Virus record (IMG/VR): IMGVR_UViG_3300034069_000533
Coordinates: 65,947-129,946 of that record
From: a virus
Taxonomy: Duplodnaviria; Heunggongvirae; Uroviricota; Caudoviricetes
Reading direction: 5' to 3' (one strand)
DNA length: 64,000 bases
The notes beneath the pieces are model-generated. The model searched no databases. It saw nothing but the letters and a program-made list of their open reading frames with translations, and was not told where the DNA came from. Position numbers and translations under genes: made by a program. This document shows, piece after piece, positions 22,746 to 64,000 of the stretch; position 1 is the stretch's first letter; each line of letters opens with the position of its first letter.

Positions 22746-22804
22746 GGCGTGTATTCCTTCTCTCTGCCCCCTTTATAGCGTTCGCCACGCTACCCGTCAA
22801 CACT
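22746..22804 (-). promoter_or_regulatory. consensus promoter-operator-leader cassette
   Basis: Same cassette. Confidence 0.55.
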
Positions 22805-22808
22805 TAAA

Positions 22809-23183: not shown

Positions 23184-23185
23184 TC

Positions 23186-23358
23186 TTAAACCCCTTGCAT
23201 CTTCGCAATCTGCATCATGTCCAACAGCCGATTAAAGCGCCGAGTCGCAATAAACAACCTTTCTCCATTGTATGAATGCGGATGCTTTTTATACCGCCGG
23301 GCTGCGTAGAGAAATTTATATTTCGCTTGAGCGTAAGCAGTTTGATTAATCTGCATTA
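23186..23358 (-). CDS. hypothetical 56-aa basic protein
   Basis: ATG with RBS gagaagga; not in the ORF track. Confidence 0.3.
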
Positions 23359-23443
23359 TTTTGGTTCCTTCTCAAAAAGCCATCAACTTGACAGCCGGAG
23401 TCGGCGGGGCGATTTCCCCGCCCTCAGCCTTCCCGATTATACC

Positions 23444-23698
23444 CTAACCCGGCCAGCCATGGCGAGCGCGCAAGGCATGCCACAGCCCCTTGCAGTCAGC
23501 CTCATCGCCCTTATTCAGCGCCTCACGGATCGCAACCACGTCTTCTGGCGGGGCAAACTTGAACCGCTTGGCCGGACCCTTCCAAGCCGCGCGCTGCGTT
23601 TCATAGGAATTGGCCGCAATTGCCGTAGCCATGTCGCCTAGCCGCTTATAGATAGCGTTTGCGCCCGGCCAGCCCGGCAAATTACCTGTTGATTCCAT
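23444..23698 (-). CDS. hypothetical small protein
   Basis: 84 aa with RBS; hairpin terminator after the stop. Confidence 0.35.
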   Translation of the reverse strand: MESTGNLPGWPGANAIYKRLGDMATAIAANSYETQRAAWKGPAKRFKFAPPEDVVAIREALNKGDEADCKGLWHALRARHGWPG

Positions 23699-23952
23699 CG
23701 CCTAATTTCCTTCTTCAGCTTGCGGCGCTTTTGCGCCTGACGTGCAATATACCGCGCCATGCGCGCCTGCACACTATTTCTTTGCATTATTTCCCTTCTT
23801 TTTCCTGTCAGCCTTCCGCCATTTGTCCATGCGCGCCAACATCATATTGTGCGCCATCTGCCGGTAAGCCTCAGCCAATTTCCGGCTATCCTCGGCGGCA
23901 TCGCGCAAGCTTTGCGCATGCTGCAACCATTCCTCCGGTGTGCGTTCGGTCA

Positions 23953-24180
23953 CTATGGTTTTGCCTCGCGCAAAACCAAATCTGCAAGATCAGGCTTTCC
24001 AATCTTCTGCAAAAAATCTGCAATAACAGCGGCGGCAACTCCCCTATCGTCAACATAATAGGCGTCAATATATTCGTCTCGCTCACCTGCATAATTACCT
24101 GACGGATCGCTTTCCACAATCTTTTTACGCAAAGTAACAGCGGCGCAATTAAGCGCCCGAGAAAAATCATTTTCAGCCAT
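23953..24180 (-). CDS. hypothetical small protein
   Basis: 75 aa; TAATG coupling to the upstream gene. Confidence 0.35.
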   Translation of the reverse strand: MAENDFSRALNCAAVTLRKKIVESDPSGNYAGERDEYIDAYYVDDRGVAAAVIADFLQKIGKPDLADLVLREAKP

Positions 24181-24434
24181 TACACCGCCTCCCCATACAA
24201 AGCGTTGAAAATCTCCAACGCCTCGCCTTCCACAAAGCCAAACTCGTACATGGTGGTACGCCCCTTGTATTCGCGCCGCACGACGCGGCCCCACAGCCGG
24301 AAGAAGTCAATCTCGTTTTCGTCCTCCTCGCCCGACCGGAAGCAGGCAGCTACCACCTTGGTCGCAAACGGGCCGTCAAGGTCCGTGTGCAGGTTGTTGA
24401 CGCAATGGGCGGGAACCGGAGTGGCGAAAAGCAT
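24180..24434 (-). CDS. hypothetical small protein
   Basis: 84 aa from the MLFATPV start adjacent to the cassette. Confidence 0.35.
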   Translation of the reverse strand: MLFATPVPAHCVNNLHTDLDGPFATKVVAACFRSGEEDENEIDFFRLWGRVVRREYKGRTTMYEFGFVEGEALEIFNALYGEAV

Positions 24435-24493
24435 TGTATGTGTCCTTCTCTCTGACACCTAACTTAGCGTGCGCCACACTAAAGGTCAATAGT
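24435..24493 (-). promoter_or_regulatory. consensus promoter-operator-leader cassette
   Basis: Same cassette. Confidence 0.55.
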
Positions 24494-24761
24494 TATTTTG
24501 CACATTTTCAAGCGCGACATTCGCCTTACGCACCACGCGCGCCCACTCAGCGCCAACTAGCCGTGTGTTGTCCTTTCCGGTGCGAATATCAATAATACTG
24601 TCGAACATGGTGAATACCCGGTGCATGGCCTCGCCTTCCATGTGGCATTCATAAGCCAACACACCCGGCGGCACGGATGCCCGCTCATACGGCACGGCAT
24701 AATTGGCCGGTAGCTTCACCTTGGCGCGACTCATGATGCCATCCAGCCCATAGCCATCCAC
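24486..24761 (-). CDS. hypothetical small protein
   Basis: 91-aa ORF. Confidence 0.3.
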   Translation of the reverse strand: MDGYGLDGIMSRAKVKLPANYAVPYERASVPPGVLAYECHMEGEAMHRVFTMFDSIIDIRTGKDNTRLVGAEWARVVRKANVALENVQNNY

Positions 24762-24879
24762 AGCACGCCCGACAGCGCAAAGCCTGCCGCATATCCCGGC
24801 GCTGCCGCTGGCGACAGGCTGAGGCGAAACCCGCCAGCGATCAGCAGCGCGCCAAATCCCATGAAAACATGACCAATCA
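24731..24879 (-). CDS. small hydrophobic membrane protein
   Basis: 49 aa, almost entirely hydrophobic (GFGALLIAGGF...VLWMAMGWM). Confidence 0.3.
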
Positions 24880-24899
24880 TTTGCTTGCTCCTGCCTGCC

Positions 24900-25053
24900 T
24901 CAAGATTTGCACAAAACAACAACGATGCCAGTCATAGAGATTGAAGCCATAATTAAAAAATAAATCTTGTCTCTTGTCCTGTCGGCACATGATATGACCA
25001 TCAAAGAAAAAACAACAGTAAGAATGCTGAGCGCAAGATAAATTTCGGTAAAC
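24900..25053 (-). CDS. small hydrophobic membrane protein (GTG start)
   Basis: 51 aa with TM-like LALSILTVVFSLMVI...MTGIVVVLC; RBS agaaggaaa 6 nt before the GTG; consensus cassette upstream. Confidence 0.35.
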
Positions 25054-25119
25054 ACGGCAAATTTCCTTCTAATTTTCCTACAAACAAATATACCGTGTCG
25101 CACGCAAACGGTCAACAAA
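25054..25119 (-). promoter_or_regulatory. consensus promoter-operator-leader cassette (slightly divergent leader)
   Basis: ataccgtgtcgcacgcaaacggtcaac plus RBS agaaggaaa. Confidence 0.45.
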
Positions 25120-25146
25120 AAAAGCGCCCGAAGGCGCTTTAATCTT
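25117..25146. terminator. bidirectional hairpin terminator
   Basis: aaaaaaagcgcccgaaggcgctttaatctt. Confidence 0.6.
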
Positions 25147-25157
25147 GTCACTCATAA

Positions 25158-25541
25158 TTATTCTCCCCACACAAAGTTAACGCCATCAACCGGTTTCCAG
25201 CCCGGTAGCCATCGCGGATGCGGTGATTCCACATCCAGCAAAACGATAACTTCCACATCGTAAAACGGTTCAAGTTGCATCGCAATAGCGATTTGCGCGG
25301 TATTATAAAGAATATAAGCAAATCCCTTGTTATGCGTCTCGCCTTCGCGCTCCTTCACGATGGCGCCAAACTTGTATTTCACCGGAGGATTAGCCGCGCG
25401 CACAATATCCGCCGGCAAGCCGGATGCGTCGTTGCGGGGCGGCTGAATGCTCCATGTTCCGCTAGCCATCTGCTCAGCGGTAGCGCTGTGGCAATCTCCC
25501 ACCTTCGGCACACCGACACGGGTAAGCGCGAAAACCTGCAT
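25158..25541 (-). CDS. hypothetical protein
   Basis: 127 aa from the MQVFALT start adjacent to the cassette; terminator at 25117-25146. Confidence 0.35.
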   Translation of the reverse strand: MQVFALTRVGVPKVGDCHSATAEQMASGTWSIQPPRNDASGLPADIVRAANPPVKYKFGAIVKEREGETHNKGFAYILYNTAQIAIAMQLEPFYDVEVIVLLDVESPHPRWLPGWKPVDGVNFVWGE

Positions 25542-25601
25542 GCGTTCCGACTCCTTCTCTCTGTGGTCAGCATATCGTGGCAAACGATATGGGTCAAGGA
25601 C
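25542..25601 (-). promoter_or_regulatory. consensus promoter-operator-leader cassette
   Basis: Same cassette. Confidence 0.55.
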
Positions 25602-29282: not shown

Positions 29283-29368
29283 GTCGAATCCGCAACGGAA
29301 AAATCTTCAACGCCGATGCATTTTTCCGTTGCGCCCCATCCAGAATGGCGGCATACATAGCGGGCCGG

Positions 29369-29426
29369 GTTTGGCGCAGGTCGCGGTTTCATCATGGAAC
29401 GAAAAACCGCAGCCGACTCTTTCCAA
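29369..29426 (+). ncRNA. Y-RNA-like hairpin RNA, unit 1 (stem only)
   Basis: 5' TTGGCGCAGGTCGCGGTTTCATC pairs imperfectly with 3' GAAAAACCGCAGCCGACTCTTTCCAA, giving a long bulged stem with a 10-nt loop; the same 5' and 3' motifs recur in five more units. Confidence 0.55.
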
Positions 29427-29477
29427 TCCGGTATTTACCGCCGCAGTAGCGGCGATCTACCGCCGCAGGGCGGGACG

Positions 29478-29557
29478 CTTGGTGTAGGTTACGGTTGCAT
29501 CTGTTTTGTAAACAGGCGTCCTTATGGGACACCGCACGCCGTTCCCGCTTATTCCAG
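29478..29557 (+). ncRNA. Y-RNA-like RNA, unit 2
   Basis: Starts cTTGGTGTAGGttacGGTTGCATC and ends cTTATTCCAG; internal hairpin ctgtttTGTAAacagg; flanked by a long inverted repeat (gcagggcgggacgc / gcgtcccgccctac). Confidence 0.45.
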
Positions 29558-29596
29558 CGTCCCGCCCTACGGCGTCTAACTCGGTAAAGGGGAATT

Positions 29597-29720
29597 CTTG
29601 GCGTAGGACGCGATTGCATCAGCAGGGAGCGGAGGTTGCCGGTTTGGAGTCCGGCCAGCGCCATTCGGGGCTGTAGCTCAACATAGAGCGCCGTTAAGCT
29701 TCGCATCCGATTATTTCCAG
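29597..29720 (+). ncRNA. Y-RNA-like RNA with permuted tRNA-like module, unit 3
   Basis: 5' cTTGGCGTAGG...GATTGCATC; T-arm-like gccgg-tttggag-tccgg; acceptor-like cagcgcc/ggggctg; D-arm tagctcaac-atagagcg; 3' ...TTATTTCCAG. Confidence 0.5.
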
Positions 29721-29759
29721 AATTCCCCTTTGCTGTGTTGGTTGCCGATCAGCGGGCAT

Positions 29760-29819
29760 CTTGGCGCAGGCTTCGGTTTCATCTCCGTAACATGAAAAAC
29801 CGCAGCCGATTATTTCCAG
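29760..29819 (+). ncRNA. Y-RNA-like hairpin RNA, unit 4 (stem only, paralog of unit 1)
   Basis: cTTGGCGCAGGcttcGGTTTCATC ... GAAAAACCGCAGCCGATTATTTCCAG. Confidence 0.55.
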
Positions 29820-29858
29820 ATGCCCGCTTAACGGCGCCTCGATTAAAAGAGTGGTTAT

Positions 29859-29990
29859 TTTGGCGCAGGTTTCGGTTTCATCAAAAGCAGTGTGCCGTTG
29901 GTTCGATTCCAACCAGCCTCCCCAAAATTTATGGAGGCTGTAGCTCAGTGGTAGAGCAACCGCCAGTAGACCGATACCGCCTCTTTCCAA
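29859..29990 (+). ncRNA. YrlA-like Y RNA with canonical circularly permuted tRNA-like domain, unit 5
   Basis: 5' TTGGCGCAGGtttcGGTTTCATC, then T-arm gttgg-TTCGATTCC-aac, acceptor 3' cagcctc, loop ccccaaaatttat, acceptor 5' gaggctg, D-arm tagctcagtggtagagc, then 3' aaccgcc...CTCTTTCCAA. This T-arm / acceptor / D-arm order is a tRNA opened at the anticodon loop and closed at the acceptor end. Confidence 0.65.
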
Positions 29991-30027
29991 ATAACCGCTC
30001 TTTTAATTAGGTCTGTAAAGTGGTTTG

Positions 30028-30175
30028 CTTGGCGTAGGATTTGGTTGCATCGCAGCGCGCGGGTTCGATTCCCGCACAGTCTCAAGCCTAGGCAGCCGGG
30101 AGATTGTTGGGCGAGTGGTAAGCCAGGGGGAGCAATCCCCCGCTTCGGCAATATGCTAATTCCGCTAAATTTCCA
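30028..30175 (+). ncRNA. Y-RNA-like RNA with permuted tRNA-like module, unit 6
   Basis: 5' cTTGGCGTAGGatttGGTTGCATC; T-arm gcggg-TTCGATTCC-cgc; acceptor-like cagtctc/gagattg; D-like ggc-gagtggtaa-gcc; 3' ...TAAATTTCCAG. Confidence 0.5.
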
Positions 30176-30244
30176 GCAAACCGCTTTACCGACTTAATTC
30201 CCGCAAGCTGTCAGACAGCCCCAATTTTTCCCCAATTCTCTGTT

Positions 30245-30273
30245 GATCTTTTTGCAATGGGCGCGTAGCCTAA
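30245..30273 (+). promoter_or_regulatory. putative rsr promoter TTGATC-N17-TAGCCT with the shared TTGATCTTTTTGCAATG motif
   Basis: Same -35 and spacer sequence as at 27965. Confidence 0.4.
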
Positions 30274-30319
30274 ATTTGCGGGCCTATTTTGGCCCCATCG
30301 CAGAAGGAGCAACCATCCC

Positions 30320-31753
30320 ATGTCTCGCATCAACGTCGCCCGGTCTTCCGGCGTATCCCCGTTCGTTCCGCACGAAGCGGGCGCCAATCAGGCGCTTTCC
30401 GCTGAGCAGACGCTAGAGCGGCTTGTGTCGTGCTGCCTGCTTGGCGAGGATCAGTTTTATCTCAACGGCCAGTCCGTCCAGACTGCGATTGCTGAGGTCG
30501 CCAAGCAGGTTAAGCCGGAATTTGTGGTGTCGCTCGCCGTCAAGGCGCGGCTTGAGCTTGGGCTGCGGCATGTCCCGCTGCTGCTGCTGACGCTCACGCT
30601 CGATACCGACGCGGGGCGCAACGCCATCCGCAAGCAGGCGGCGCCGATTCTGCGCACGCCGAAGGATGCGATGGATTTGCTGGCGCTCTACTGGCGAGCG
30701 GGCAAGCGTCCGGTGCCGCACGTTTTCAAGCAGCTTTTCCGTCAGCGCTTCGCGGTTTGGTCTGACTACCAAATCCAGAAGTATGGCACGCTATCGGCGC
30801 GCGTTAGCGTCCGGCTGCGTGATGTGCTGCGGCTGTGCCATGCCGATCCGCGCAATTTTTACTCCAACGCTCTGGCTGATGATCGTAACGCAATTACTGT
30901 TGCGCGCGAGGCTTTGTTTAAGTCGCTGACCGACGACACCATTCGCGCGCCCGACACCTGGGAGTCCGCGCTGTCTGCGGCCGGGCCGGATGGCGACAAG
31001 CGCGCCATTTGGGAGCGGCTGTTGGCTGAGCGGAAGCTTGGCGCGCTGGCGCTGGTCCGCAACCTGCGGAACATGGAGGCGGCCGGCGTCACCCCGGCGC
31101 TCGTGATCGCGGCCATGGAGACGGTCAAGGCGGGCGACGTATGGCCCTGGCAGGCTCTAGCGGCGGCGCGTGAGGCCCCGACCTATACGCACGCCCTGGA
31201 TGCCCTCATGCTGCGATCTGCCGGCTCCCTGCCGCGCCTGCCGGGGCATACGGGCGTGCTGGTAGACGTGTCGGGGTCCATGGATCACGGGCTGTCCACC
31301 AAGGGCACGATGAAGCGCATGGACGCGGGCGCCGGGCTTGCCGTGGTGCTGAATGAGGTTTGCGAGGCGTCCACCATCGCCAGCTTTTCCGAATCCGTGG
31401 TGCTGGTTTCCAGCATCGCCATAGGCAAGCGCGGCGCGGGTCTGGCCAGCGACATTGTACGCAGCCAGCCGCATGGCAGAACCTATCTGGCGCAGGCGGT
31501 GGAAACCTTCCTGCGCTGCCATCCGATCATTGACCGGCTGGTAATTCTGACCGACGAACAGGCGCAGGACCACTTCACGTCCCCGCCGAATTTGCCGGTG
31601 TATGTCGTCAATCTCGCGTCCACTGAGCGCGGGATGAACATGCAACAGAAGGTAACGCGTATCAACGGTTGGTCCGGCAATGTTATTCGCTGGCTGGCTC
31701 AGGATATTGCCGGCACCATCGGGCAGGTTGGCGACGGTAGCGAGGAAGATTAA
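30320..31753 (+). CDS. rsr: Ro60-related protein (TROVE domain plus vWA domain), Rsr ortholog
   Basis: The N-terminus NQALSAEQTLERLVSCCLLGEDQFYLNG aligns with the Ro60/Rsr N.xGG.A..L....L.RFL.LGSEGGTYY block. The C-terminal vWA has a MIDAS-like DVSGSM. Y-RNA-like genes lie immediately upstream, and the terminator gccgggcagtaatgcccggcttttttt follows. Confidence 0.75.
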   Translation: MSRINVARSSGVSPFVPHEAGANQALSAEQTLERLVSCCLLGEDQFYLNGQSVQTAIAEVAKQVKPEFVVSLAVKARLELGLRHVPLLLLTLTLDTDAGRNAIRKQAAPILRTPKDAMDLLALYWRAGKRPVPHVFKQLFRQRFAVWSDYQIQKYGTLSARVSVRLRDVLRLCHADPRNFYSNALADDRNAITVAREALFKSLTDDTIRAPDTWESALSAAGPDGDKRAIWERLLAERKLGALALVRNLRNMEAAGVTPALVIAAMETVKAGDVWPWQALAAAREAPTYTHALDALMLRSAGSLPRLPGHTGVLVDVSGSMDHGLSTKGTMKRMDAGAGLAVVLNEVCEASTIASFSESVVLVSSIAIGKRGAGLASDIVRSQPHGRTYLAQAVETFLRCHPIIDRLVILTDEQAQDHFTSPPNLPVYVVNLASTERGMNMQQKVTRINGWSGNVIRWLAQDIAGTIGQVGDGSEED

Positions 31754-33610: not shown

Positions 33611-33685
33611 TGGTTGCCCTGCCAGGATTCGAACCTAGACCCTCGCATTCAAAGTGCGATGTTACTACCGTTAAACTACAGGGCA
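33611..33685 (-). tRNA. tRNA-Gln: tRNA-Gln (TTG)
   Basis: Minus-strand read: acceptor tgccctg/cagggca, anticodon stem tcgca/tgcga with loop cTTTGaa, T-arm ctagg-ttcgaat-cctgg, encoded CCA. Confidence 0.7.
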
Positions 33686-39070: not shown

Positions 39071-39271
39071 TTACAACCGACAGCACGCCACCAACCACCG
39101 CAAAAGCGAACACTTCCAAATTTTCCAATGAGATAGCTTCCAAAGCATCCCTTCAATTAACTGCTCAACGCTGGTTCCTTTGCGCTCGCAATGATACTGA
39201 ATTATGCAACCAATCAATCCAATAATTATTGGCATACCATAAATCAGCAGCAGAAATTGCCCGTCGTTCAT
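39071..39271 (-). CDS. small membrane protein (low-GC)
   Basis: 66 aa with TM helix LLLIYGMPIIIGLIGCII. Confidence 0.3.
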   Translation of the reverse strand: MNDGQFLLLIYGMPIIIGLIGCIIQYHCERKGTSVEQLIEGMLWKLSHWKIWKCSLLRWLVACCRL

Positions 39272-40062
39272 TCGTGCAACTCCTTTACAAACGTCATATT
39301 GTTTTGCTGACAATATCGCTGAAACGCGACTTGGTGAAGCTCACCGGGCAGCATATTTATGCTGGTTCCGATTGTGCCGCCTTTCCATGATCCCTTGCGT
39401 CGTCCGGTTTCTTCTGAAAAAAACAAATCAAGCGAGCGCACAATTTTAGATTTACGGAACAGTGAAAGCCATTTAAACCACCCCTCACCAAACTTCCATT
39501 CGCCCTCATGAATGGCGGTTGTCGCTATAATTTCTTGTCCATCATAATCCTTAAATAAAAACTTACGCTTTGGGCAATCCTCTCGCGCGTCATGCCATGC
39601 GTCATATCCTTGCGTGCCTTTGTCTTGTGGCACGGTTGCAATGTGCTCGCCGTTTAATCCGTACACACTCCACCTAGTGTGCCGCCAATTCATCCAAGGC
39701 AAAAACTTAGAATAGCTTTTTGTTGTTTCGCTATCCCCGGTTTGCGGACCATAAAATAACTGAAAAAATCCTTCATTTGAGGAAACGCCGTATTGCTTTC
39801 TTGCAGTGTCAGTTAACAATTGACCATTGTATGCCGATATACGCGACTTTTGCCAAGGCTTTATGATCTCTGGAATCTCAGCAATAATAGTATGGCCAAA
39901 CCCGCTAATACGCAGCGAGCATGCCGGGGATTCGTCCCCGTCGCCGGAAGATAAAATAATGGCTAGTGGTTTATAACCTGACCTATTGCGGGCATAGGTA
40001 AATGGCCCACAATATTTATCATGATCGCTCCACCGATTATTGCGCGGCATTGTTTTCTCCAT
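39268..40062 (-). CDS. hypothetical Trp-rich protein (low-GC island)
   Basis: ~265 aa with GC well below the surrounding genome. Confidence 0.35.
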   Translation of the reverse strand: MEKTMPRNNRWSDHDKYCGPFTYARNRSGYKPLAIILSSGDGDESPACSLRISGFGHTIIAEIPEIIKPWQKSRISAYNGQLLTDTARKQYGVSSNEGFFQLFYGPQTGDSETTKSYSKFLPWMNWRHTRWSVYGLNGEHIATVPQDKGTQGYDAWHDAREDCPKRKFLFKDYDGQEIIATTAIHEGEWKFGEGWFKWLSLFRKSKIVRSLDLFFSEETGRRKGSWKGGTIGTSINMLPGELHQVAFQRYCQQNNMTFVKELHE

Positions 40063-40531
40063 AATTAAATTCCCTCGCCGCCAACGCCATAGCTGCATGC
40101 GGCCAAATCCAATCCAGCATGCGCTTTATCTCTGGCGGCATCTGTGCGCTCTGCACAAAGCCCATGCCGCCGTTACCCATCATCTGACCAAACACCATCG
40201 GACCAAACGGCCAGGGGCCATGAGCATACGGCTCCATATTCATTGTCCGGCACATATGTAAAGCCAGCCGTTCAATGCGCGCATCCCTGCGCGCCCAAGC
40301 AATAGCTTTGACGTAAGCCGCACGCAAAGAATTCGCTGAGCTATTAAACTCGCGCATTGGGTTGTTATAACTAAAATCATTCTTCCTTGCGCTGACGCCG
40401 TAATCTCCGTTGTGCGTCCAGCCGTTATTAATCAAATAGCCCGGCGGCGCCAGCTTACTAACCACACGCGGCAAGTCTTTAATAATTTTGTCCGGCACAT
40501 TTCGCGCCTGCTGTATTTGCCTTCTATTCAT
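40037..40531 (-). CDS. hypothetical protein
   Basis: 164-aa ORF. Confidence 0.35.
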   Translation of the reverse strand: MNRRQIQQARNVPDKIIKDLPRVVSKLAPPGYLINNGWTHNGDYGVSARKNDFSYNNPMREFNSSANSLRAAYVKAIAWARRDARIERLALHMCRTMNMEPYAHGPWPFGPMVFGQMMGNGGMGFVQSAQMPPEIKRMLDWIWPHAAMALAAREFNYGENNAAQ

Positions 40532-43185: not shown

Positions 43186-43935
43186 TTAAACTCCTTCTTT
43201 ATATTTTTTCAGTCTATCTCTTGTTTGCTCTGGCGTCAATCTGCTTCCTTTCATTCTGTTGCACCTAAGACAAGATATTTTTAGATTTTCCCATGTGTGG
43301 TTGCCGCCTTTTGCTATGGATACAATATGCTCAATCTCTGCTTTGTTCGCTGATCTAGGCTCAGCTTGAATTGACGTTTCTATTCCACATATATAGCATA
43401 TTAATCCGTCTCTTTTTGCTATGTCTTCAATTGTAATTTTTTCAAATATTATTCCACGAATTGTTGCTTTTCTTTTTGCTTTAGAGATTTTTGCGTTAAT
43501 TTTTACTTTTTCTTTATTTTTTGTTCGCCAAATTTTTGAATTGCATGAAGCTTGCTCTGAATTGGAGTAATGCCATATTTTTGATCTTTCTTTTATTTTT
43601 TCTTTGTTGTTTTGATAATATTTGATTTGGTTTTCTTTGTATTTTTCAGGATTTTTTGCTATCCACTCTTTAAATTTTTTGTTTCTTTTTTGCGGGTCTT
43701 TGTTGGCATTTTTTCTATTTGTTTCTTTTACTTTTTCAGGATTTTCCAACCAAAGTTTTTGCATTCTTTCCCTTGATCTTATTCTTCCGCACTCATTGCA
43801 AACACCGTTTAATGTTTGTCTATCTGACAAATGATTGTTTACACATAATTTTCCTGTAAAATAACTTTTTAAACCAAGCTTTTTGGCTTCTGATCTTTTT
43901 ATAATTTTTTGATTCATTATACACCCATCAAACAA
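43186..43935 (-). CDS. HNH homing endonuclease (low-GC)
   Basis: C-terminal CYICGIE...EIEHIVSIAKGGNHTWENLKISCLRCNRMKG; AT-rich gene with a K-rich N-terminus. Confidence 0.6.
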   Translation of the reverse strand: MFDGCIMNQKIIKRSEAKKLGLKSYFTGKLCVNNHLSDRQTLNGVCNECGRIRSRERMQKLWLENPEKVKETNRKNANKDPQKRNKKFKEWIAKNPEKYKENQIKYYQNNKEKIKERSKIWHYSNSEQASCNSKIWRTKNKEKVKINAKISKAKRKATIRGIIFEKITIEDIAKRDGLICYICGIETSIQAEPRSANKAEIEHIVSIAKGGNHTWENLKISCLRCNRMKGSRLTPEQTRDRLKKYKEGV

Positions 43936-45299
43936 GCCGCAAACCTTGCTCTAGTCAAAGCTACATACATAAGTTGCTGGTATTCAAGCAGCTTATAGCT
44001 AATTAACTTGTTGCAGTCAGGAACGTCAATCAGCACATTTGAAAATGTAGAACCTTGGCTTGTGTGGATGGTCATGCTGTAAACCGGCCGCAAATCGGCA
44101 ATCTCATCCTTGAAAAGAAATAAGTCTTTCCATCGTGCCTTATTGCCCTGCGCCTCAGCCCGAATGCGACCGATGACAAATTGCAACTCTTGCTCATTGA
44201 CCGGAATGTAAGCCGTCACGTCATCGTTGTTAATAATCTGCTCGCCAGTCCACTTGTCGCGGTAAATGTCTGGCTGGTTGCGGACAAGACTGACCTTCCA
44301 TACCGGCAAGTCATAATACCATTCCGGTATTTCAAGCTGGCCGGGGGAGCCTACCCGCTTTTCAAAATAAATCTTTTTGGTGGATAGCTCAATGTCGGAA
44401 ATATACGCCTCCTCATTGGTCTGGAATGCCGGGCGCCCCATACCATCCAACACCGGATTGCGGCACATGACGCGCTCACCCGGTACAAACGGGGTTTCCG
44501 TCTCGCCGTAAATCCAATAACGCGCCTTGGCGTTAATTTCTTTGACCTTATTATTGGTGTAGGCCAGATAACGAAAACTATCGTTATCCTCCCGAAAAAC
44601 CTCTGACGTAAAAGCGTCATTCAGCCATTTATCGCCATCCGTGCCCGCGCAATACACGCCCGATTGGCCATGCTCGACAGTCCGCACCCATGACATATCC
44701 AGCGCACCGCCCTGCTGGCGCCGCAGAATGCCCGCCGCTTGCAGGATGGGGTTATCTGCCGCCTGCCGCACAACCTCGCTCAGATGCGCGTGGTACTCGC
44801 CACCGATCATCCGATCAAAGATAGGCGCGCGAGCTTCACCCACAGGCGGAAGCTGCGCCGGGTCGCCAACGTAAAGCCGGAAATGCCACGCCAAGTCATT
44901 GTCAATGACACGCTGCATTTCGTGGCCGTTCATTGAAGTTTCGTCAACAACAACGGCCTGATATGCGCCGGCCCGGCTCTTGCCGATTTTCTTTAATACG
45001 GTTTTTTCCGTATCACCCGCCGCCGGGCGCAGCCCCATAAGGCTATGCTCGGTCATGCAGGGAACGTCTAGCTCAGCCTCTACCATCTTGCGCGACAGCA
45101 CTTTGACGGACTGATGCGTTGGCCCGACGCACACAACGTTATGGCCAATGTCCTGAATGGACTTGGCCACCTTTTGCATCAGCGTGGTTTTACCTGTGCC
45201 AGAATCACCCGTGAGCAAAACCTCACGGCTCACCCGATCTTGGTAAATCTGCATAATCCGGGCAAACGCGGACTCCTGCGATCCGCTCAGCGTTATCAT
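43917..45299 (-). CDS. RecD/Dda-like SF1 DNA helicase
   Basis: Walker A LTGDSGTGKTT; Walker B VVVDETSM; C-terminal SMTIHTSQGSTF ... ALTRAR. Confidence 0.65.
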   Translation of the reverse strand: MITLSGSQESAFARIMQIYQDRVSREVLLTGDSGTGKTTLMQKVAKSIQDIGHNVVCVGPTHQSVKVLSRKMVEAELDVPCMTEHSLMGLRPAAGDTEKTVLKKIGKSRAGAYQAVVVDETSMNGHEMQRVIDNDLAWHFRLYVGDPAQLPPVGEARAPIFDRMIGGEYHAHLSEVVRQAADNPILQAAGILRRQQGGALDMSWVRTVEHGQSGVYCAGTDGDKWLNDAFTSEVFREDNDSFRYLAYTNNKVKEINAKARYWIYGETETPFVPGERVMCRNPVLDGMGRPAFQTNEEAYISDIELSTKKIYFEKRVGSPGQLEIPEWYYDLPVWKVSLVRNQPDIYRDKWTGEQIINNDDVTAYIPVNEQELQFVIGRIRAEAQGNKARWKDLFLFKDEIADLRPVYSMTIHTSQGSTFSNVLIDVPDCNKLISYKLLEYQQLMYVALTRARFAACLMGV

Positions 45300-59210: not shown

Positions 59211-59912
59211 CTAGTCGCAGTTTGCCGCCAGATAGTCACGCTGCACCTGCGTAGGATCGGCAACGCGACGGATGGCATTGCATTGCGTCCGGCTTGGGCG
59301 CGGATCGCGCGCCGTCGCCGGATGCATCGGCACAACGCGGGTAATCGTCACTGGCTGCGCCGCCTGAGCATTGCGCCGGTTGCGGCTCTCGGTCAGCGCC
59401 TCATTCACTTCCCGATTCTTGGCCATGACCAATAGCGCCGCTTCCGGCTCGCCAAGCACCTGAAGCGCAAGCGCGTAATTGTAACGAATGCAATCCTCGT
59501 CATGCCGGCCGAACATGGCCGAGAAGCTAAAGCCCGGCCCGCTGCCGCCAACGCCTGCCGAATTCTGGCAATAAGCGGTCGCCATGCCAAGCGCAATGCC
59601 GGGCGTGTTGCGGATAGTTGACGGGCTGTTGCTATTGAATGTGTTGCTATTGCTAGCGACACCGCCGCTGGAATTGGCAGAGCCGTAGCCCGTGCCGCCC
59701 TGACCGCCAGCCCCGCCACCGCCACCCGCGCCGCCGGTCGCGGTGCTGTTGCTGCCAATCTGGCCGGTAGAGATTGCGGAGTTAACGCCGTTCTGAAAGT
59801 TGCCGTTGGTCAGCCCGGTTGGCATGTTGACGTTGCCGCCAACCTGCGGCGTTTGCGCAAGCGCTGGAAGCGCAGCGAGACAGAAAACAGCAGACAACAA
59901 AGCTTTATTCAT
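59211..59912 (-). CDS. secreted Gly/Ser/Asn-rich protein (moron-like)
   Basis: Signal peptide MNKALLSAVFCLAALPALA; low-complexity G/S/N core; own terminator. Confidence 0.4.
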   Translation of the reverse strand: MNKALLSAVFCLAALPALAQTPQVGGNVNMPTGLTNGNFQNGVNSAISTGQIGSNSTATGGAGGGGGAGGQGGTGYGSANSSGGVASNSNTFNSNSPSTIRNTPGIALGMATAYCQNSAGVGGSGPGFSFSAMFGRHDEDCIRYNYALALQVLGEPEAALLVMAKNREVNEALTESRNRRNAQAAQPVTITRVVPMHPATARDPRPSRTQCNAIRRVADPTQVQRDYLAANCD

Positions 59913-60092
59913 TTTATTAACTCCTGTTTCAACGCAGCCTGTCTAGCAACCTGCTGTAGAAATTGCAATCGGTATGTGTGACGTTGCGGCGCAGCATGTT
60001 GTTGCTGGTTTGTTAATTGCAGATTTATCAGATTTCGTTTGACACGGTATGCTTATGCTGACATATTGCAATCACAGAGACGGAGAAACCCA

Positions 60093-60317
60093 ATGCTGAC
60101 GCCAGAGCAAATTGCAAAGACCATTGACCATGCTGAGGGTTTTGGTCCGCAGGGCGTTTCAAATTTAATTGATATGCTTGAGCGGCAAGCTGTCGCCTCA
60201 GAAGCTTGGGCTGCGCAATCATCTTATAAGGGTGACAAGCGCAAGGCTTCCGCGCTGGCCGAAGCCAAGCGCCTCCGCGATGAAGCCGCACAGCTTCGCA
60301 CATACGTCTTACGCTGA
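60093..60317 (+). CDS. hypothetical protein
   Basis: Start at MLTPEQ with RBS ggag. Confidence 0.3.
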   Translation: MLTPEQIAKTIDHAEGFGPQGVSNLIDMLERQAVASEAWAAQSSYKGDKRKASALAEAKRLRDEAAQLRTYVLR

Positions 60318-60332
60318 CGCAGGAACCGCTTC

Positions 60333-60527
60333 ATGAACGATCACCACTTTGCTCCGCATAGCAATGAAACATCACAAGCGGAGCGACGGGAATTGATTCG
60401 GCTCCGCGCTATCGAGGCGGCAGCACAAGCCGTATCTCTTGCTGCTTGGACTGATCGCCATTCGCGTCTTCACGGCCACCCTGCGGTGACTGCTTTGGAT
60501 GCCGCGCTGAAGCCTAACCCTGACTGA
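60333..60527 (+). CDS. hypothetical protein
   Basis: 64-aa ORF. Confidence 0.3.
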   Translation: MNDHHFAPHSNETSQAERRELIRLRAIEAAAQAVSLAAWTDRHSRLHGHPAVTALDAALKPNPD

Positions 60528-60542
60528 CCGACAGGCCCCGAC

Positions 60543-60941
60543 TTAGCCCCGCACATACGGCACAGCCAACCCCGCGCCTAACAGCGCGTCGCCAACATCC
60601 TCGCCCGCCTGCGTCACGATGCGGGCGAGGAACCGGCCGAAGCCGTCTTTCGGGTCGCTCCCCTTGGCTTTATCCGTGATGACGAACACCGCCGCGCCGG
60701 GCGGGGCCATATGGTTGGAGTAAGCGGCGCCTAGCTCTGCCGCCTCGCGCGTCTTCGGGTCGCTGGCGTGTAGCTCATAGCAGTTGACGCCTCCCTTGCT
60801 GCCAAGGAGACGGACCCGCTGTTTTGTTCCGATGTAAAAACCAACGTCCACATCCAAATCAACGGTATCGCCATCAATCCAGCGGACGATGCGCGCTTGA
60901 TAGCGCCATAAATTAATTTCCTCTGGCATCGTTGAAATCAC
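60543..60941 (-). CDS. thermonuclease (SNase-like) family nuclease
   Basis: ARIVRWIDGDTVDLDV...QRVRLLG matches SNase (IDGDT...RL.GID). Confidence 0.5.
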   Translation of the reverse strand: MISTMPEEINLWRYQARIVRWIDGDTVDLDVDVGFYIGTKQRVRLLGSKGGVNCYELHASDPKTREAAELGAAYSNHMAPPGAAVFVITDKAKGSDPKDGFGRFLARIVTQAGEDVGDALLGAGLAVPYVRG

Positions 60942-61126
60942 CTTGACAATTTAGGTTTCTTGGACGCCACGGGTGGTAGGTCGCCCGTGTCGCGGTGCCT
61001 GACGATTGCGCGCTCAGGAATGTCAAGCAGCGCGGCAATCCGCACGGTTGAATATTTCTTGCTTAAATATTCACGAATCTGCGCCAGTTGGTCGGGCGCC
61101 AATTTGCCAGCCGGACGGTTTGCCAC
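60938..61126 (-). CDS. small HTH DNA-binding protein
   Basis: EYLSKKYSTVRIAALLDIPERAIVRH helix-turn-helix. Confidence 0.4.
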   Translation of the reverse strand: MANRPAGKLAPDQLAQIREYLSKKYSTVRIAALLDIPERAIVRHRDTGDLPPVASKKPKLSR

Positions 61127-61143
61127 GCTGCCAGCGCGCTAGC

Positions 61144-61374
61144 TTAGCGGACCCGACTCAGAGTCATCTTCTTTGGCGCTCCGCGCGCCAGGGTGTCCAG
61201 CGTGATCTTGTCGCGCATATCTTTGTTCTTCTTTGCAATATCCACAACCTGTGTCCATCGCAGCGTAGGGATGCCGCCCTTGCGCCACTTGAATACGGTT
61301 GTCTCTACAAGGTCCAACTTTTCGGCAAGGAGCTTGTAGCCGCCCAACGCCTCAATAATTTTCTCATGGTTCAT
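61144..61374 (-). CDS. Cro/CI-like HTH regulator
   Basis: MNHEKIIEALGGYKLLAEKLDLVETTVFKWRK; divergently oriented from the 61475 gene. Confidence 0.45.
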   Translation of the reverse strand: MNHEKIIEALGGYKLLAEKLDLVETTVFKWRKGGIPTLRWTQVVDIAKKNKDMRDKITLDTLARGAPKKMTLSRVR

Positions 61375-61395
61375 CGCTTTTGCTCCAAATACCTG

Positions 61396-61424
61396 TTGAC
61401 GCCATGTTGGCGCCCGCCCATAAT
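61396..61424 (+). promoter_or_regulatory. sigma70-type promoter TTGACG-N17-CATAAT in the divergent switch region
   Basis: Canonical hexamers with 17-bp spacing upstream of 61475. Confidence 0.5.
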
Positions 61425-61474
61425 CACCGCATCGCATCCGGCGATAAAGCCCAAAAGTGAGAAAGGATCAAAAA

Positions 61475-61780
61475 ATGTCTGACGTTGTGAACACCGAGGT
61501 TGCCGAGGCTTTCGACGCGCTCAAGACCAAGCTGAAGCAAGTTGCCATGGCTGGCAAGGCTGTGGATATGCAGCGCAATATCAATTACGCTGTGGCGGTT
61601 GAGGCGCTTGAGGAGACGTATAATGCTGGCCATCCGGTTGGCGGCGTGAAGCCTGCGGGCGCGAAGCGCGGTCGTAAGCCGAAGAATGCCGCGACCGAGG
61701 CCAGCCCGGAGGGCGAGACTGCCGCGACCGAGGTTGAGGCTTCTGCCGAGGCTGAGGGTGGGCGGCGCCGCCGGGGCTAA
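61475..61780 (+). CDS. AT-hook-like acidic protein
   Basis: GAKRGRKPKNAATE AT-hook-like motif followed by an acidic tail; RBS gagaaagga. Confidence 0.4.
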   Translation: MSDVVNTEVAEAFDALKTKLKQVAMAGKAVDMQRNINYAVAVEALEETYNAGHPVGGVKPAGAKRGRKPKNAATEASPEGETAATEVEASAEAEGGRRRRG

Positions 61781-62057
61781 TCCCCTAGAGTAAGAGAAAG
61801 CCCGCGCTGGTTCACTGGCGCGGGATTTTCTTTAAAGTAAAAAAGGAAAAAAATTCAATGCAGAAGGAAGCCACCAACATTATTAATTTGCATGCCGCGC
61901 GGGACCGCCGCAACGCGTTCGCCATCCCCTGCCCGCCGCCGGGCAGTCTGATCTACAGCCGCACATGGCCTAGCCGCTGGTTGAATTACCCGCGCATTAT
62001 TGGCCCGTCGCGTCGTCTGTGGATTTGGTTTTAAAAATAGAAAAACGGAGAAGGAAA

Positions 62058-62213
62058 ATGCAAACAATTGCTAGCTATATATATGCTTTTTTTGTAACCA
62101 TTCTCAGCGTTATGTTTATTTTTTACGGGAAAGCTACAAATATTTTATCATTTATTTTTATATTTACATTTTTGACTTTTGCTTTTATTACAGTAAAGGC
62201 AGTTTTGCCTTGA
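62058..62213 (+). CDS. 51-aa hydrophobic membrane protein (very AT-rich)
   Basis: RBS ggagaagga; two TM-like segments; GC far below genome average. Confidence 0.35.
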   Translation: MQTIASYIYAFFVTILSVMFIFYGKATNILSFIFIFTFLTFAFITVKAVLP

Positions 62214-62764
62214 GCGGCGCAATCACATTGGCGATGTTTCTGCAACTGGCCGGGGCCAGTTGCGAGATTGCGCCGCACACTCTGGCCAGCCTGAGCTTTG
62301 CCGAGAGCGGCGGCGCAGGCCAGACGCTTGACTCACTGGCTATCAACATTAACGGGCCGGGTGGCGGCACGGTAAGGGGGATCAGGACGAAGGCGCAAGC
62401 CATGGCGAAGGCGCGCGAGTTAATCCGCGCTGGCAGGGACTTTGATGCGGGTGTTGGACAAATTAACGTCCGCAATTGGCGTTGGCTTGGCGTGACGGTT
62501 GAGACGGTATTTAACCCGGCAGATAATATTGCCGCGCAATGCCGGCTTTTGCAGTCATACAGCCGATACAATACGGGATCACCCGTCCGTGGCGTGGCTA
62601 ATGGCTATGTCGGACGGATTGTCAGAGGCGCAGCCAGCGTCAGGGAGGTTGCTCGGCAATCCGCCGCGTCAACACCCCGGCGCGACGCTAACGCATGCCC
62701 TAGCCGCTCCCGCGTGGCGGTATGGGGCACGTCGCCCCGACAGGCACGGTGCCGGTCGGGATAA
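62210..62764 (+). CDS. lytic transglycosylase (SLT domain; VirB1-like)
   Basis: SLSFAESGG ... GVGQINVRNW catalytic-region motifs. Confidence 0.55.
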   Translation: MSGAITLAMFLQLAGASCEIAPHTLASLSFAESGGAGQTLDSLAININGPGGGTVRGIRTKAQAMAKARELIRAGRDFDAGVGQINVRNWRWLGVTVETVFNPADNIAAQCRLLQSYSRYNTGSPVRGVANGYVGRIVRGAASVREVARQSAASTPRRDANACPSRSRVAVWGTSPRQARCRSG

Positions 62765-62784
62765 TTCTGCATGGAAACAAACCG

Positions 62785-63063
62785 ATGGATAATAACACTT
62801 GGCGTAAGCTTAATATTGTCTGTTTAACGCTTCTGGCTTGCTTGTTTTCCGTTACTGCCAGCGCTGATGTTATTGGCGCCATGTCGGCAGTAAGCACGGA
62901 AATGATTGGTTGGGTACAGACTGGCGCGATTATCGTTGTTATTATTTCCGCTATTGCGGTGGCAACTGGTCGCGCTTCGCTTCTTGGTTTGGCTGGTCTG
63001 ATTATTGGTCTTGCGGTTGCGGCTCAGCCGGAAACCTTCGCCAATCTGATTACTAGGTCTTAA
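62785..63063 (+). CDS. VirB2/TrbC-like pilin
   Basis: Signal peptide ending ASA, then two TM helices; size and topology of T4SS pilins. Confidence 0.45.
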   Translation: MDNNTWRKLNIVCLTLLACLFSVTASADVIGAMSAVSTEMIGWVQTGAIIVVIISAIAVATGRASLLGLAGLIIGLAVAAQPETFANLITRS

Positions 63064-63064
63064 A

Positions 63065-63412
63065 ATGTCCATTTCAGTCGAGCAAGAAATAGAAACGCAT
63101 ACCATCCAGCTTGCAGACACGCGACCGACGATGATTGGTATTCCGTTTTTGGGCGAAATACCAATTGTGCTAGGAGCGCTGGTTTTCGCAATCTTTGGCT
63201 GCGCCTATGTCTTGTTCGGCTGGAAATGGGCACTTGGCTTTCCGGCGGTGTGGTTTGGCGTGTCAAGGCTAATTGCGCTTGACTACCACGCAATTACCAA
63301 ATTTGACTTGTGGCGCAACACAAGCGCGTGGAACCTAGACACAAAGACGCACGGCGGAAATTCGGTGACGCCGTTTCCGCTGTATCCAAAGCGCCCAAAA
63401 GGTATGAGATAG
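63065..63412 (+). CDS. VirB3/TrbD-like T4SS protein
   Basis: ADTRPTMIGIPFLG resembles the VirB3 ATRPALFLGVP motif; ALDYHA resembles ERDYNA; hydrophobic core. Confidence 0.5.
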   Translation: MSISVEQEIETHTIQLADTRPTMIGIPFLGEIPIVLGALVFAIFGCAYVLFGWKWALGFPAVWFGVSRLIALDYHAITKFDLWRNTSAWNLDTKTHGGNSVTPFPLYPKRPKGMR

Positions 63413-63483
63413 CAAATTAGGTGTTGCGCACGATTAGAATTCTGCTAAGCTGTTTGTGTTGAGCAAGCAGAAGGAATAGACAA

Positions 63484-63843
63484 ATGACGCTTTCCGTTGT
63501 TATTACCCGCGAGGGTCTTTTGGTTTCCGGCGCCATGAGCAGCGCCGATGATGTTGACTTCGTTATCAAGTCGCTGCGGGCGGCGCAGGAGAGTCTTTTT
63601 CCGGTTGGGCGCATGCACTCGGTCACGCTGCGCCATGTGCCGGATGATCGGCGGATTAATACTATTAAGGAAGTCCGCGCGTTTACCGGCCTTGGACTGA
63701 AGGAAGCCAAAGATTTGGTTGACAAGGTTTCCGCTGGTAATCCGACCATTGTTGCCAGCATGTTGCCCCACAATGACGCGGTACGCGCCCGGTCTGCGCT
63801 TGAGTCACACGGTTGCGCCGCTGATATTTCCCTTGTTGCGTAG
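63484..63843 (+). CDS. protein with ribosomal bL12 (L7/L12) C-terminal-domain-like region
   Basis: [28 protein letters not shown]...[12 protein letters not shown] aligns with bL12 CTD [30 protein letters not shown]...AEALKKALEEAG; the N-terminal half is unrelated. Confidence 0.5.
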   Translation: [119 protein letters not shown]

Positions 63844-63860
63844 AGAAGGAACATGAAACA

Positions 63861-64000
63861 ATGCCGCACCTGACTGATTACTTGCCCGCCAAACTGAGGG
63901 AGGCGGTTGGTTGGTGCGGCGGGGGAGAAAGCGAGCCGTCGCGCTTCTTCCCTTATTTCGATCATGTGCGGCCCAATGTCATGCTGTTACGCGACGGCGG
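63861..64000 (+). CDS. partial ORF running off the window
   Basis: ATG at 63861 stays open to the window end. Confidence 0.2.
   Translation, partial: MPHLTDYLPAKLREAVGWCGGGESEPSRFFPYFDHVRPNVMLLRDG

Follow-up and report, generated by a model that had tools for sequence, protein, structure and literature searches.

Phages and conjugative elements are regarded as two distinct routes of self-driven gene transfer, and the locus studied here raises the question of whether both can meet in one element. In a 64-kb stretch of the Caudoviricetes record IMGVR_UViG_3300034069_000533 (the window), T4SS genes fill the last 2 kb, and a large tailed-phage genome takes up the rest (158-61437, minus strand). 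An earlier reading of the letters alone (the sequence-only reading) had left two explanations side by side, a prophage inserted beside a conjugative element and a phage-plasmid hybrid, and the evidence presented below moves somewhat towards the hybrid. The window was supplemented with the public Logan contigs L001, L015 and L016, which match the junction region; L001 is 100% identical to window positions 61817-64000 and adds approximately 1.2 kb past position 64000.

The end of the window as part of a virB operon

In T4SSs, VirB1 opens the peptidoglycan and VirB2 is the pilin, while VirB3 docks on the VirB4 ATPase, which powers assembly of the pilus and channel. The 62058-64000 region is almost certainly the promoter-proximal part of such an operon of the VirB/VirD4 type (P-type, MPF-T; Table 1), as three independent homology matches, arranged collinearly with the genes of three reference T4SS loci, place this identity far beyond chance. 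All ORFs listed in the sequence-only reading were recovered on the plus strand where it had placed them, and its virB1/virB2/virB3 order is borne out by the family matches and by the collinearity with the reference loci. Two genes in this region come in addition to its list, namely a bL12-domain gene and the 5' end of virB4.

Table 1. Features of the phage-T4SS junction region and of the opposite end of the window
Feature	Position	Strand	Basis
Neck/tail terminator gene	158-649	-	ORF scan
Cro/YdaS-like HTH regulator, last minus-strand gene of the early/replication arm	61144-61437	-	Pfam, PHROG
101-aa protein	61475-61780	+	ORF and gene call
Intrinsic-terminator-like hairpin, 10 pairs (8 GC), followed by T run	61801-61824	+	Sequence scan
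58-aa ORF upstream of T4SS genes	61858-62034	+	Called as gene on Logan contigs
51-aa ORF, two hydrophobic segments, 26% GC island	62058-62213	+	ORF, hydropathy
VirB1-like lytic transglycosylase, 184 aa, TTG start	62210-62764	+	NCBIfam VirB1 E 3e-16
VirB2/TrbC-type propilin, 92 aa	62785-63063	+	Topology, position between virB1 and virB3
VirB3, 115 aa	63065-63412	+	NCBIfam VirB3 E 5.5e-10
Spacer ahead of bL12-domain gene	63413-63483	+	Resembles decayed phage promoter-leader cassette
bL12 C-terminal-domain protein, 119 aa	63484-63843	+	Pfam Ribosomal_L12 E 2.7e-14, above cutoff
virB4 5' end, 46 codons within window	63861-64000	+	L001 ORF 2045-3391, 449 aa

The nearest sequenced loci are those of Roseomonas sp. 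OT10 plasmid pOT10-2 (NZ_CP087721) and of the metagenomic contigs L003 and L004, all of which have the canonical virB1-B11/virD4 order, and hence the same virB1-virB4 order as found here; the succession of transglycosylase, pilin, VirB3 and VirB4 is also that of the archetype, the virB operon of Agrobacterium tumefaciens pTi (P-type, MPF-T). As in the three nearest loci, VirB3 and VirB4 are encoded by separate genes, and the signature motifs are common to both sides, albeit at an identity of only 30-43%. The VirB1 protein is 43% identical to the lytic transglycosylase of pOT10-2 (E 2e-27) and 36-43% identical to VirB1 of the three loci, with the catalytic E-S, GxxQxN and YNTG motifs invariant across the alignment; a 19-residue segment of its relatives is missing from it, and its tail is unusual in being rich in Arg and Ser. 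VirB3 is 30-37% identical to the three VirB3s (37% for pOT10-2) and keeps the TRP, DY(H/N)A and GGxS..P motifs, and the residues that had suggested VirB3 from the translation alone (TRPTM..G.P and DYHA) are indeed conserved VirB3 motifs. The pilin, which probably starts at 62785 rather than at 62722, has a signal peptide that ends in ASA before D, followed by two hydrophobic helices. Profile searches upheld the earlier assignment for VirB3 and only in part for VirB2, where sequence support is weak: the Pfam TrbC/VirB2 match (E 8e-5, 23 bits) lies under the cutoff of 27.9 bits, an hhalign comparison with neighbouring VirB2s gave E 3e-4 at a probability of 40%, and BLASTP against the reference T4SS loci gave no match. 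VirB4, which was expected to follow if these were T4SS genes, does so: the N-terminal 449 residues encoded on L001 match Pfam CagE_TrbE_VirB (E 4e-20), are 35-36% identical to the full-length VirB4 of L003 and pOT10-2, and are stop-free and aligned end to end with homologs. The part of the T4SS seen here is confined to virB1 through the N-terminal portion of virB4, and the Walker A/B part of VirB4, virB5-B11 and any genes for a coupling protein and a relaxase, with an oriT, would lie past the available sequence.

The operon differs from its nearest relatives in several respects. Its GC content is about 55.5%, compared with 64-69% in the related loci, and unlike these it is preceded by an AT-rich mini-ORF, which the sequence-only reading had already described as a membrane protein gene and for which our analyses show two hydrophobic segments and 26% GC. 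This 51-aa ORF has a strong GGAG ribosome-binding site and a stop codon that overlaps the VirB1 start (TTGA), and although it has no family match in Pfam, NCBIfam or PHROGs it may encode a small membrane protein; the low-GC island may at the same time supply the operon with an AT-rich promoter, and a promoter-like site is located inside the ORF (62122-62151). The neighbour of the operon is a phage early region here, whereas the related loci are flanked by plasmid replication genes or HTH regulators, with no phage genes near those of pOT10-2, L003 and L004. Finally, virB3 and virB4 overlap with no gene between them in these three loci, whereas here they are separated by the bL12-domain gene and two spacers.

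The best VirB4 matches are alphaproteobacterial (plasmids of Acetobacteraceae and Rhizobiaceae), the nearest homologs would suggest an Acetobacteraceae-like host, and most of the plasmid records with a VirB4 homolog are typed as conjugative (2346/2781). Close relatives are scarce: a search of 5.8 billion proteins gave only two hits at E <= 1e-10, a search of IMG/VR and JGI metagenomes seeded with the VirB4 protein gave no close T4SS relative, and in blastn the 61800-64000 segment matched neither plasmids nor phages. Deposited phage records have virtually no VirB4 homologs (4 entries among 50,697, all unannotated and metagenomic), which makes for a low prior for a phage-borne T4SS.

A bL12-domain gene between virB3 and virB4

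We are highly confident that the gene separating virB3 from virB4 is a foreign insertion, with leader-like sequences on both sides. Its product matches L7/L12 structures in the PDB (Foldseek TM 0.77 to 1ctf), and lacks the N-terminal dimerisation/L10-binding domain (PF16320), having in its place 45 residues which are unrelated to bL12, are common only to the protein P0364, and are of low confidence when the structure is predicted without an alignment. Judged by this domain content, it is a bL12-domain protein and not the product of a ribosomal protein gene. Among 1.84 billion representatives, P0364 is the sole homolog that matches over the full length; it is encoded in an early operon of a phage unrelated to this one, and by its gene context the bL12-like family is phage-borne. 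Many phages have independently acquired bL12 domains (Mizuno et al. 2019, PMC6375957), and the protein described here shares with those virus-encoded proteins the C-terminal domain with its conserved helix region and a gene of phage type, but differs from them in the absence of the L10-binding domain and in its private N-terminus. We found no earlier description of a bL12-domain gene within a virB operon, a setting that is new for ribosomal-protein domains of virus type.

The spacers connect the insertion to the phage next door. The phage has at least 23 promoter-leader cassettes, and at the 3' end of the spacer ahead of the bL12-domain gene the leader, ribosome-binding site and start are identical (18/18) to those of the cassette gene at 21333-21350. 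The spacer reached a local-alignment score of 36, compared with a maximum of 32 among 2768 control segments; the link to the cassettes is based on this control and the exact 18-nt leader match, and is without profile support, as an nhmmer profile of the phage promoter cassette gave only a non-significant hit in the T4SS region (E 5.3, 63469-63486). A second leader-like AGAGAAGGAA precedes virB4, which has a good ribosome-binding site downstream of the inserted gene. We regard the presence of a phage cassette with its leader inside a conjugation operon as direct evidence that genes have passed between both kinds of element.

The junction

The last phage gene before the operon encodes a Cro-like regulator (Pfam YdaS_toxin E 2e-4 and P22_Cro E 5e-3; PHROG DNA-binding protein E 5e-8), for which the Logan gene call is 61144-61374. 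Divergent from it, and sitting where related phages have their repressor, is the gene for a 101-aa protein with a helical N-terminus, a KRGRKPK AT-hook-like motif and an acidic tail, for which there was no match in Pfam, NCBIfam or PHROG; a promoter-like site is present nearby (61396-61424). The terminator-like hairpin divides this gene from the T4SS operon, and the 58-aa ORF that follows has no Pfam match. Likewise, no useful Pfam match was obtained for eight small ORFs near the junction and ten at 11.7-17.9 kb, the sole match among these eighteen being a zinc ribbon under the cutoff (E 0.007).

The sequence-only reading had suggested a check for attachment sites on either side of the phage-like region, and a search at the junction found no att-like repeat, tRNA or tRNA fragment; 61.3-62.3 kb was also free of known RNA families and boundary-type repeats. 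There is no recombinase gene near the junction, and no host gene lies between phage and operon.

The phage genome and its relatives

The region upstream of the operon, previously called phage-like, is truly phage: it encodes the major capsid protein, a DUF2213 protein, Mu-F, portal, an intein-bearing large terminase and a neck terminator, together with a replication module. It further contains inteins, homing endonucleases, tRNAs, RNA-repair genes and Acb3, with no lysogeny module seen, and these traits are those of a virulent or plasmid-phage type. The earlier reading had identified no other lysis cassette, and this holds, with no lysis genes recognised among the window ORFs scanned; the tail genes are outside the window, and the lysis genes probably are too, beyond the neck/tail terminator gene at its opposite end. 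Among the 27 large window ORFs (174-1082 aa) there was no match to integrase, partition (ParA/ParB) or replication-initiator (Rep) families, and the window ORFs scanned yielded neither a relaxase nor a coupling protein; the SF1 helicase at 43917-45299 is Dda/RecD-like and not a relaxase.

Related phages have the same AAA_24/DUF669/exonuclease/helicase/primase module at 67-70% identity, and upstream of their early genes there is an integrase or a serine recombinase, accompanied by an S24 repressor where one is visible; the recombinase at the immunity-side end is apparent in two of them (L018 and a 95-kb contig). The position of integrase and repressor in these relatives is held by the T4SS here. 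No T4SS was found within 10 kb in nine IMG/VR loci or in four closer AAA_24 homolog contexts, and no close relative of the phage was found in GTDB genomes. The tetranucleotide composition of the 3.4-kb T4SS segment correlates with that of the phage at 0.945, above all 35 windows of the phage itself, compared with about 0.65 for the homologous T4SS loci.

One element or two

Three further explanations were considered, and each has some observations in its favour. The order of a small ORF with two hydrophobic segments, a lytic transglycosylase and membrane proteins is superficially that of a phage lysis cassette, in which these would be a two-TM holin, an endolysin of transglycosylase type and spanin-like proteins, and the lack of recognisable lysis genes in the other ORFs scanned would fit with this. 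The sequence-only reading had considered a lysis cassette the less fitting alternative, and the searches agree, as none of the five proteins has a holin, endolysin or spanin match in Pfam or PHROGs, while VirB1, VirB3 and VirB4 are specifically homologous to, and collinear with, their counterparts in T4SS loci; moreover, in L017, the one relative in which lysis genes were seen, these are upstream of the divergent early region and not beside the replication genes. The chance of a lysis cassette is negligible, and with VirB4 following we consider it refuted. Joining of a phage contig to a plasmid contig during assembly is only marginally more probable: L001 starts (61817) and L015, which covers 60005-61841, ends inside the terminator hairpin, but the two overlap by 25 nt, the JGI assembly, with genes annotated as 'type IV secretory pathway VirB3-like protein' and 'ribosomal protein L7/L12', has the same phage-T4SS join, and composition is seamless across it. 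A chimera was rejected, since L016, which comes from a different sequencing run, bridges the junction over 61460-63009 with 100% identity. It is also improbable that the genes are a decaying virB1-virB4 fragment, taken up as cargo or left behind by recombination, with no working secretion system. In line with decay, the insertion splits a virB3/virB4 pair that normally overlaps, VirB1 has its missing segment and unusual tail, all proteins are highly divergent (<=43% identity), and the visible sequence ends at VirB4 residue 449; against this, all five reading frames are intact, the catalytic and signature motifs are conserved, and VirB4 retains its ribosome-binding site and its uninterrupted end-to-end alignment.

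This leaves the comparison of one element with two. We propose that operon and phage may form one composite mobile replicon, for which we see the case as evenly balanced, and which is slightly favoured over two adjacent elements. The proposal draws on the lack of an integrase, recombinase, tRNA or att-like repeat at the junction, from the location of the T4SS where related phages carry integrase and repressor, from the match in oligonucleotide composition between operon and phage, from the phage-borne nature of the bL12-like family and the leader of this phage on its gene, and from a phage part with virulent or plasmid-phage traits rather than a lysogeny module. It is weakened by the limited part of the T4SS seen, by the strong terminator and AT-rich break between phage arm and operon, by the absence of a T4SS close to the genes of the phage relatives and of phage genes close to the T4SS relatives, and by the rarity of VirB4 in deposited phages; matching composition could also come from a shared host alone. 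The same terminator, separate relatives and VirB4 rarity fit two abutting elements, i.e. a prophage on or beside a conjugative plasmid, ICE or chromosomal T4SS island, in which case the 61.8-62.05 kb spacer would contain the boundary and the integrase would sit at the opposite, unseen end, and both phage-ICE tandems (PMC13651849) and prophages on conjugative megaplasmids (PMC12934698) are documented. This is a realistic reading which we rate clearly below even. The integrase could indeed sit at the far prophage end, beyond the tail genes, but the immunity-side end, where two relatives have their recombinase, lacks an integrase, att-like repeat and tRNA, no host gene separates the parts, their composition is identical, and a gene of a phage family with this phage's leader is found 1.4 kb inside the operon.

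In the proposed composite element, the operon would fill the divergent 'left arm' beside the Cro-like gene in place of repressor and integrase, and would have taken in a gene cassette of the phage itself. Such an element would need no integration in order to persist and could spread in virions, and also by conjugation provided that VirB5-B11, a coupling protein and a relaxase are encoded further on. The most complete form of this proposal, a conjugative phage-plasmid in which a tailed phage (head-to-early region >61 kb, on a contig of ~130 kb) carries a complete P-type T4SS that replaced its lysogeny/integration module, with a virB operon remodelled by its own cassette for a free bL12 factor-binding domain, is put forward tentatively, at a little under an even chance.

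Comparison with known systems

Phage-plasmids such as P1, N15, SSU5 and similar (Pfeifer et al. 2021, PMC7969092; Pfeifer and Rocha 2024, PMC10879196) likewise join a tailed phage to plasmid-type genes, and in phage-plasmid surveys conjugation machinery is nearly absent; a full mating-pair-formation operon beside an apparently intact set of head and replication genes would be unusual among them. The element described here further differs in lacking a plasmid replication or partition gene among the 27 large ORFs. No integrase or recombinase was found in its 64 kb, including the position where relatives have one. Phage-ICE tandems and megaplasmid prophages also have phage and conjugation genes on one DNA, with co-transfer possible, but these are accretions in which both elements are complete and bring an integrase and att sites of their own, whereas there is no recombinase or att site at the join described here, and a phage cassette is located inside the T4SS operon. 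If the composite reading is true, phage head, packaging and replication genes combined with a VirB-type mating apparatus would offer two routes of transmission, and host-range limits would be blurred because conjugation needs no phage receptor. Under the ordinary reading too, co-transfer is possible for a prophage and the T4SS operon that it abuts.

The VirB-type operon adjoining the phage genes

The plus strand from 62058 to 64000 carries a tightly packed series of ORFs (see table), which opens with the AT-rich membrane ORF that the sequence-only reading had placed ahead of virB1: its GC content is 26% vs ~55% in the surroundings, its stop codon shares bases with the TTG that starts the VirB1 gene, and it has no family match in Pfam, NCBIfam or PHROGs. 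The lytic transglycosylase was correctly taken for VirB1, with 43%, 41% and 36% identity to the lytic transglycosylases opening three reference T4SS loci, and with catalytic Glu-Ser, GxxQxN and YNTG motifs that are invariant across the alignment. For the pilin-like ORF, whose likeliest start (62785) agrees with the Logan contig gene calls, the signal peptide and hydrophobic helices were borne out, while sequence matches to VirB2 are weak (Pfam TrbC/VirB2 E 8e-5, below gathering score; hhalign E 3e-4). The VirB3-like protein is 30-37% identical to three VirB3s, and the motifs first quoted for it are conserved VirB3 motifs.

Two genes had gone unmentioned in that reading, the bL12-like gene and the ORF after it, which is virB4: L001, a public Logan contig 100% identical to the window at 61817-64000, extends 1.2 kb further, and its virB4 ORF runs for 449 aa with no stop (Pfam CagE_TrbE_VirB E 4e-20; 35-36% identity to full-length VirB4 proteins). 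The nearest VirB4s are located in canonical virB1-B11 plus virD4 operons (metagenomic contigs L003 and L004, and the Roseomonas plasmid pOT10-2), and 2346/2781 plasmids with a VirB4 homolog are typed conjugative. The T4SS is a divergent new representative of the VirB/VirD4 kind, of which VirB1-VirB4 only are visible.

Features at the junction and in the T4SS operon
Feature	Position	Strand	Remarks
Cro-like regulator	61144-61437	-
101-aa gene	61475-61780	+	divergent from Cro-like gene
51-aa ORF	62058-62213	+	two hydrophobic segments, GGAG ribosome-binding site
VirB1 lytic transglycosylase, 184 aa	62210-62764	+	NCBIfam VirB1 E 3e-16
VirB2 pilin-like ORF, 92 aa	likeliest start 62785	+	signal peptide ending ASA|D, two hydrophobic helices
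VirB3, 115 aa	63065-63412	+	NCBIfam VirB3 E 5.5e-10
bL12-like protein, 119 aa	63484-63843	+	Pfam L7/L12 C-terminal domain
virB4 5' end	from 63861, runs off window	+	ORF

In VirB systems, VirB1 opens the murein locally, VirB2 is processed and then polymerised as a pilus, and VirB3 and VirB4 form an inner-membrane energising complex. By analogy, VirB1 would here open the murein locally, VirB2 would be processed and polymerised into a pilus, and VirB3 would form the energising complex in the inner membrane with VirB4; DNA conjugation would depend on components beyond the visible VirB1-VirB4.

A phage-type gene between virB3 and virB4

Residues 46-115 of the 119-aa protein match the ribosomal L7/L12 C-terminal domain above the Pfam cutoff (E 2.7e-14) and keep the bL12 helix 4-5 region. 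The protein is without the L10-binding N-terminal domain of bL12, and the normal way into the ribosomal stalk is probably not open to it; as guesses, it may bind translational GTPases or act as an adaptor. When 1.84 billion representatives were searched exhaustively with HMMER, the N-terminal part of the 119-aa protein recurred in a single protein, P0364 (37% identity), whose gene sits in an early operon on a phage contig that is otherwise unrelated, and repeated acquisition of bL12 domains by phages is known (PMC6375957). We class the bL12-like gene as phage-type. The same search yielded many multi-repeat non-ribosomal bL12-domain proteins, and four PHROG families of unannotated function match the protein. 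Two related IMG/VR phage contigs (L010 3754-4506, L011 6073-7008) encode proteins of 250-311 aa with a bL12-helix-like C-terminal motif (AIKELR..TG..LK..KD.VE) just upstream of the replication gene AAA_24.

The phage repeats a promoter-leader cassette of ~70 nt at least 23 times, each time ahead of a small ORF, with the layout TGTTGAC-N17-TATAAn-N9-CAGAGAGAAGGA-N8-10-ATG and a CGTG..CACG palindrome within N17. The array occupies the minus strand at 14000-47000 (densest at 14000-25600), the cassette 12-mer occurs 17 times vs 0.2 expected, and a weak plus-strand copy lies at 60031-60093; taken together, these cassettes resemble an array of regulated early or middle promoters. Similarity to them upstream of the bL12-like gene was not significant by profile search. 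The 18 nt ending at its start codon match the leader of the cassette gene at 21333-21350 base for base, the 74-nt spacer upstream scored 36 against the cassettes (control maximum 32 in 2768 segments), and a second leader-like AGAGAAGGAA precedes virB4; the insert therefore resembles a cassette that came out of the array of this phage.

One element or two

The sequence-only reading had the T4SS genes directly adjoining a phage region, and both sides of this hold. The phage genes (158-61437, almost all on the minus strand) are genuine, and include structural and packaging genes (neck terminator, major capsid, DUF2213 protein, Mu-F, portal, and large terminase with inteins), five tRNAs, a 35-kb accessory region (RlaP, TROVE/Ro60 protein, SPFH/NfeD, Thg1, Acb3, NADAR, HNH and GIY-YIG endonucleases), and a replication module (SF1 helicase, DUF3987 primase-helicase, SNF2-type helicase, exonuclease, DUF669, AAA_24). 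An assembly chimera could be suspected, as one Logan contig breaks within the terminator hairpin at the join, but L016, from a different run, covers 61460-63009 with zero mismatches, L015 covers 60005-61841, and the JGI assembly has the same proteins in a contig of 129,946 bp, making a chimeric join unlikely. A holin-endolysin-spanin lysis cassette, already judged less consistent, is rejected because none of the five proteins matches a holin, endolysin or spanin family (Pfam, PHROGs); together these two readings have very little probability.

We give an even chance to phage and T4SS forming one composite element, considering junction, relatives, composition, bL12-like gene and cassettes. Phages with a replication module 67-70% identical to this one are temperate, 40-50 kb in size, and carry either a tyrosine integrase with an S24 repressor or a serine recombinase upstream of the early genes, a place here taken by the T4SS. 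The junction contains neither integrase nor recombinase, and no tRNA, att-like repeat or known RNA, and the 27 large ORFs scanned in the window (174-1082 aa) include no recombinase, Rep or Par protein. These points favour one element, as do the phage-type bL12-like gene, the cassette-like leader and the matching composition. Correlation of the 3.4-kb T4SS segment (GC 55.5%) with the tetranucleotide profile of the phage is 0.945, which exceeds the value of each of the 35 phage self-windows, vs ~0.65 for homologous T4SS loci at 64-69% GC. Composition may also be shared through a common host; AAA_24 and VirB4 homologs both point to Acetobacteraceae-like Alphaproteobacteria. Two adjacent elements are a serious possibility, somewhat short of even: a strong terminator (61801-61824) ends the 101-aa gene, the T4SS operon begins beyond it, within an AT-rich stretch with promoter-like hexamers, and this break counts against one element, as does the limitation of the visible T4SS to VirB1-VirB4. 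Also against one element, the combination was not found in the relatives of either part examined, a VirB4 homolog occurs in no more than four of 50,697 deposited phage records, all four of them unannotated metagenomic entries, and profile search gave no significance to the cassette similarity. A decaying fragment is improbable; the four VirB proteins are intact, with their signature motifs preserved.

The known arrangements that come closest are phage-plasmids, phage-ICE tandems and prophages on conjugative megaplasmids, and none of the three matches fully. Unusual here are the phage-type gene inserted between virB3 and virB4, and the placement of the operon in a large phage's left arm, without a recombinase at the join.

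Other features of the phage part

The 101-aa protein, in 'repressor position', combines a helical N-terminus with a KRGRKPK AT-hook-like motif and an acidic tail, and has no HTH match; as 280 bp separate its gene from the 26% GC island at 62058-62213, we speculate that it might bind AT-rich DNA. In the phage early arm lies the gene for a 233-aa protein (59211-59912, minus strand) that has a signal peptide, a long stretch rich in Gly/Ser/Asn and no family match. The large terminase (8228-11476, minus strand, 1082 aa) carries intein/Hint domains at residues ~170-263 and ~540-810. Four tRNA genes (Leu-TAA, Leu-TAG, Pro, Tyr; 5156-5541, plus strand) lie within the head-gene block, on the opposite strand, between the Mu-F and DUF2213 genes, while tRNA-Gln (33611-33685, minus strand) lies in the accessory region.

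Anti-defence and homing-endonuclease genes abound in that region, which has low-GC islands at 24-28 kb and 41-45 kb; a strong match to the CBASS inhibitor Acb3 (39268-40098, minus strand; E 1e-75) has NADAR, HNH, GIY-YIG and SPFH/NfeD genes close by. The TROVE/Ro60-like gene (30320-31753, plus strand) is preceded by Y-RNA-like sequences (region 29354-31753), including a YrlA match at 29860-29986 (E 1.8e-6, 37 bits, below gathering score), a 151-nt tRNA-like match at 29934-30084, and six repeats of ~33-40 nt spaced 100-170 nt apart. The same accessory region also encodes RlaP, Thg1 and a metallophosphoesterase, and these genes and sequences may form a phage-borne Ro/Y-RNA RNA-repair module.
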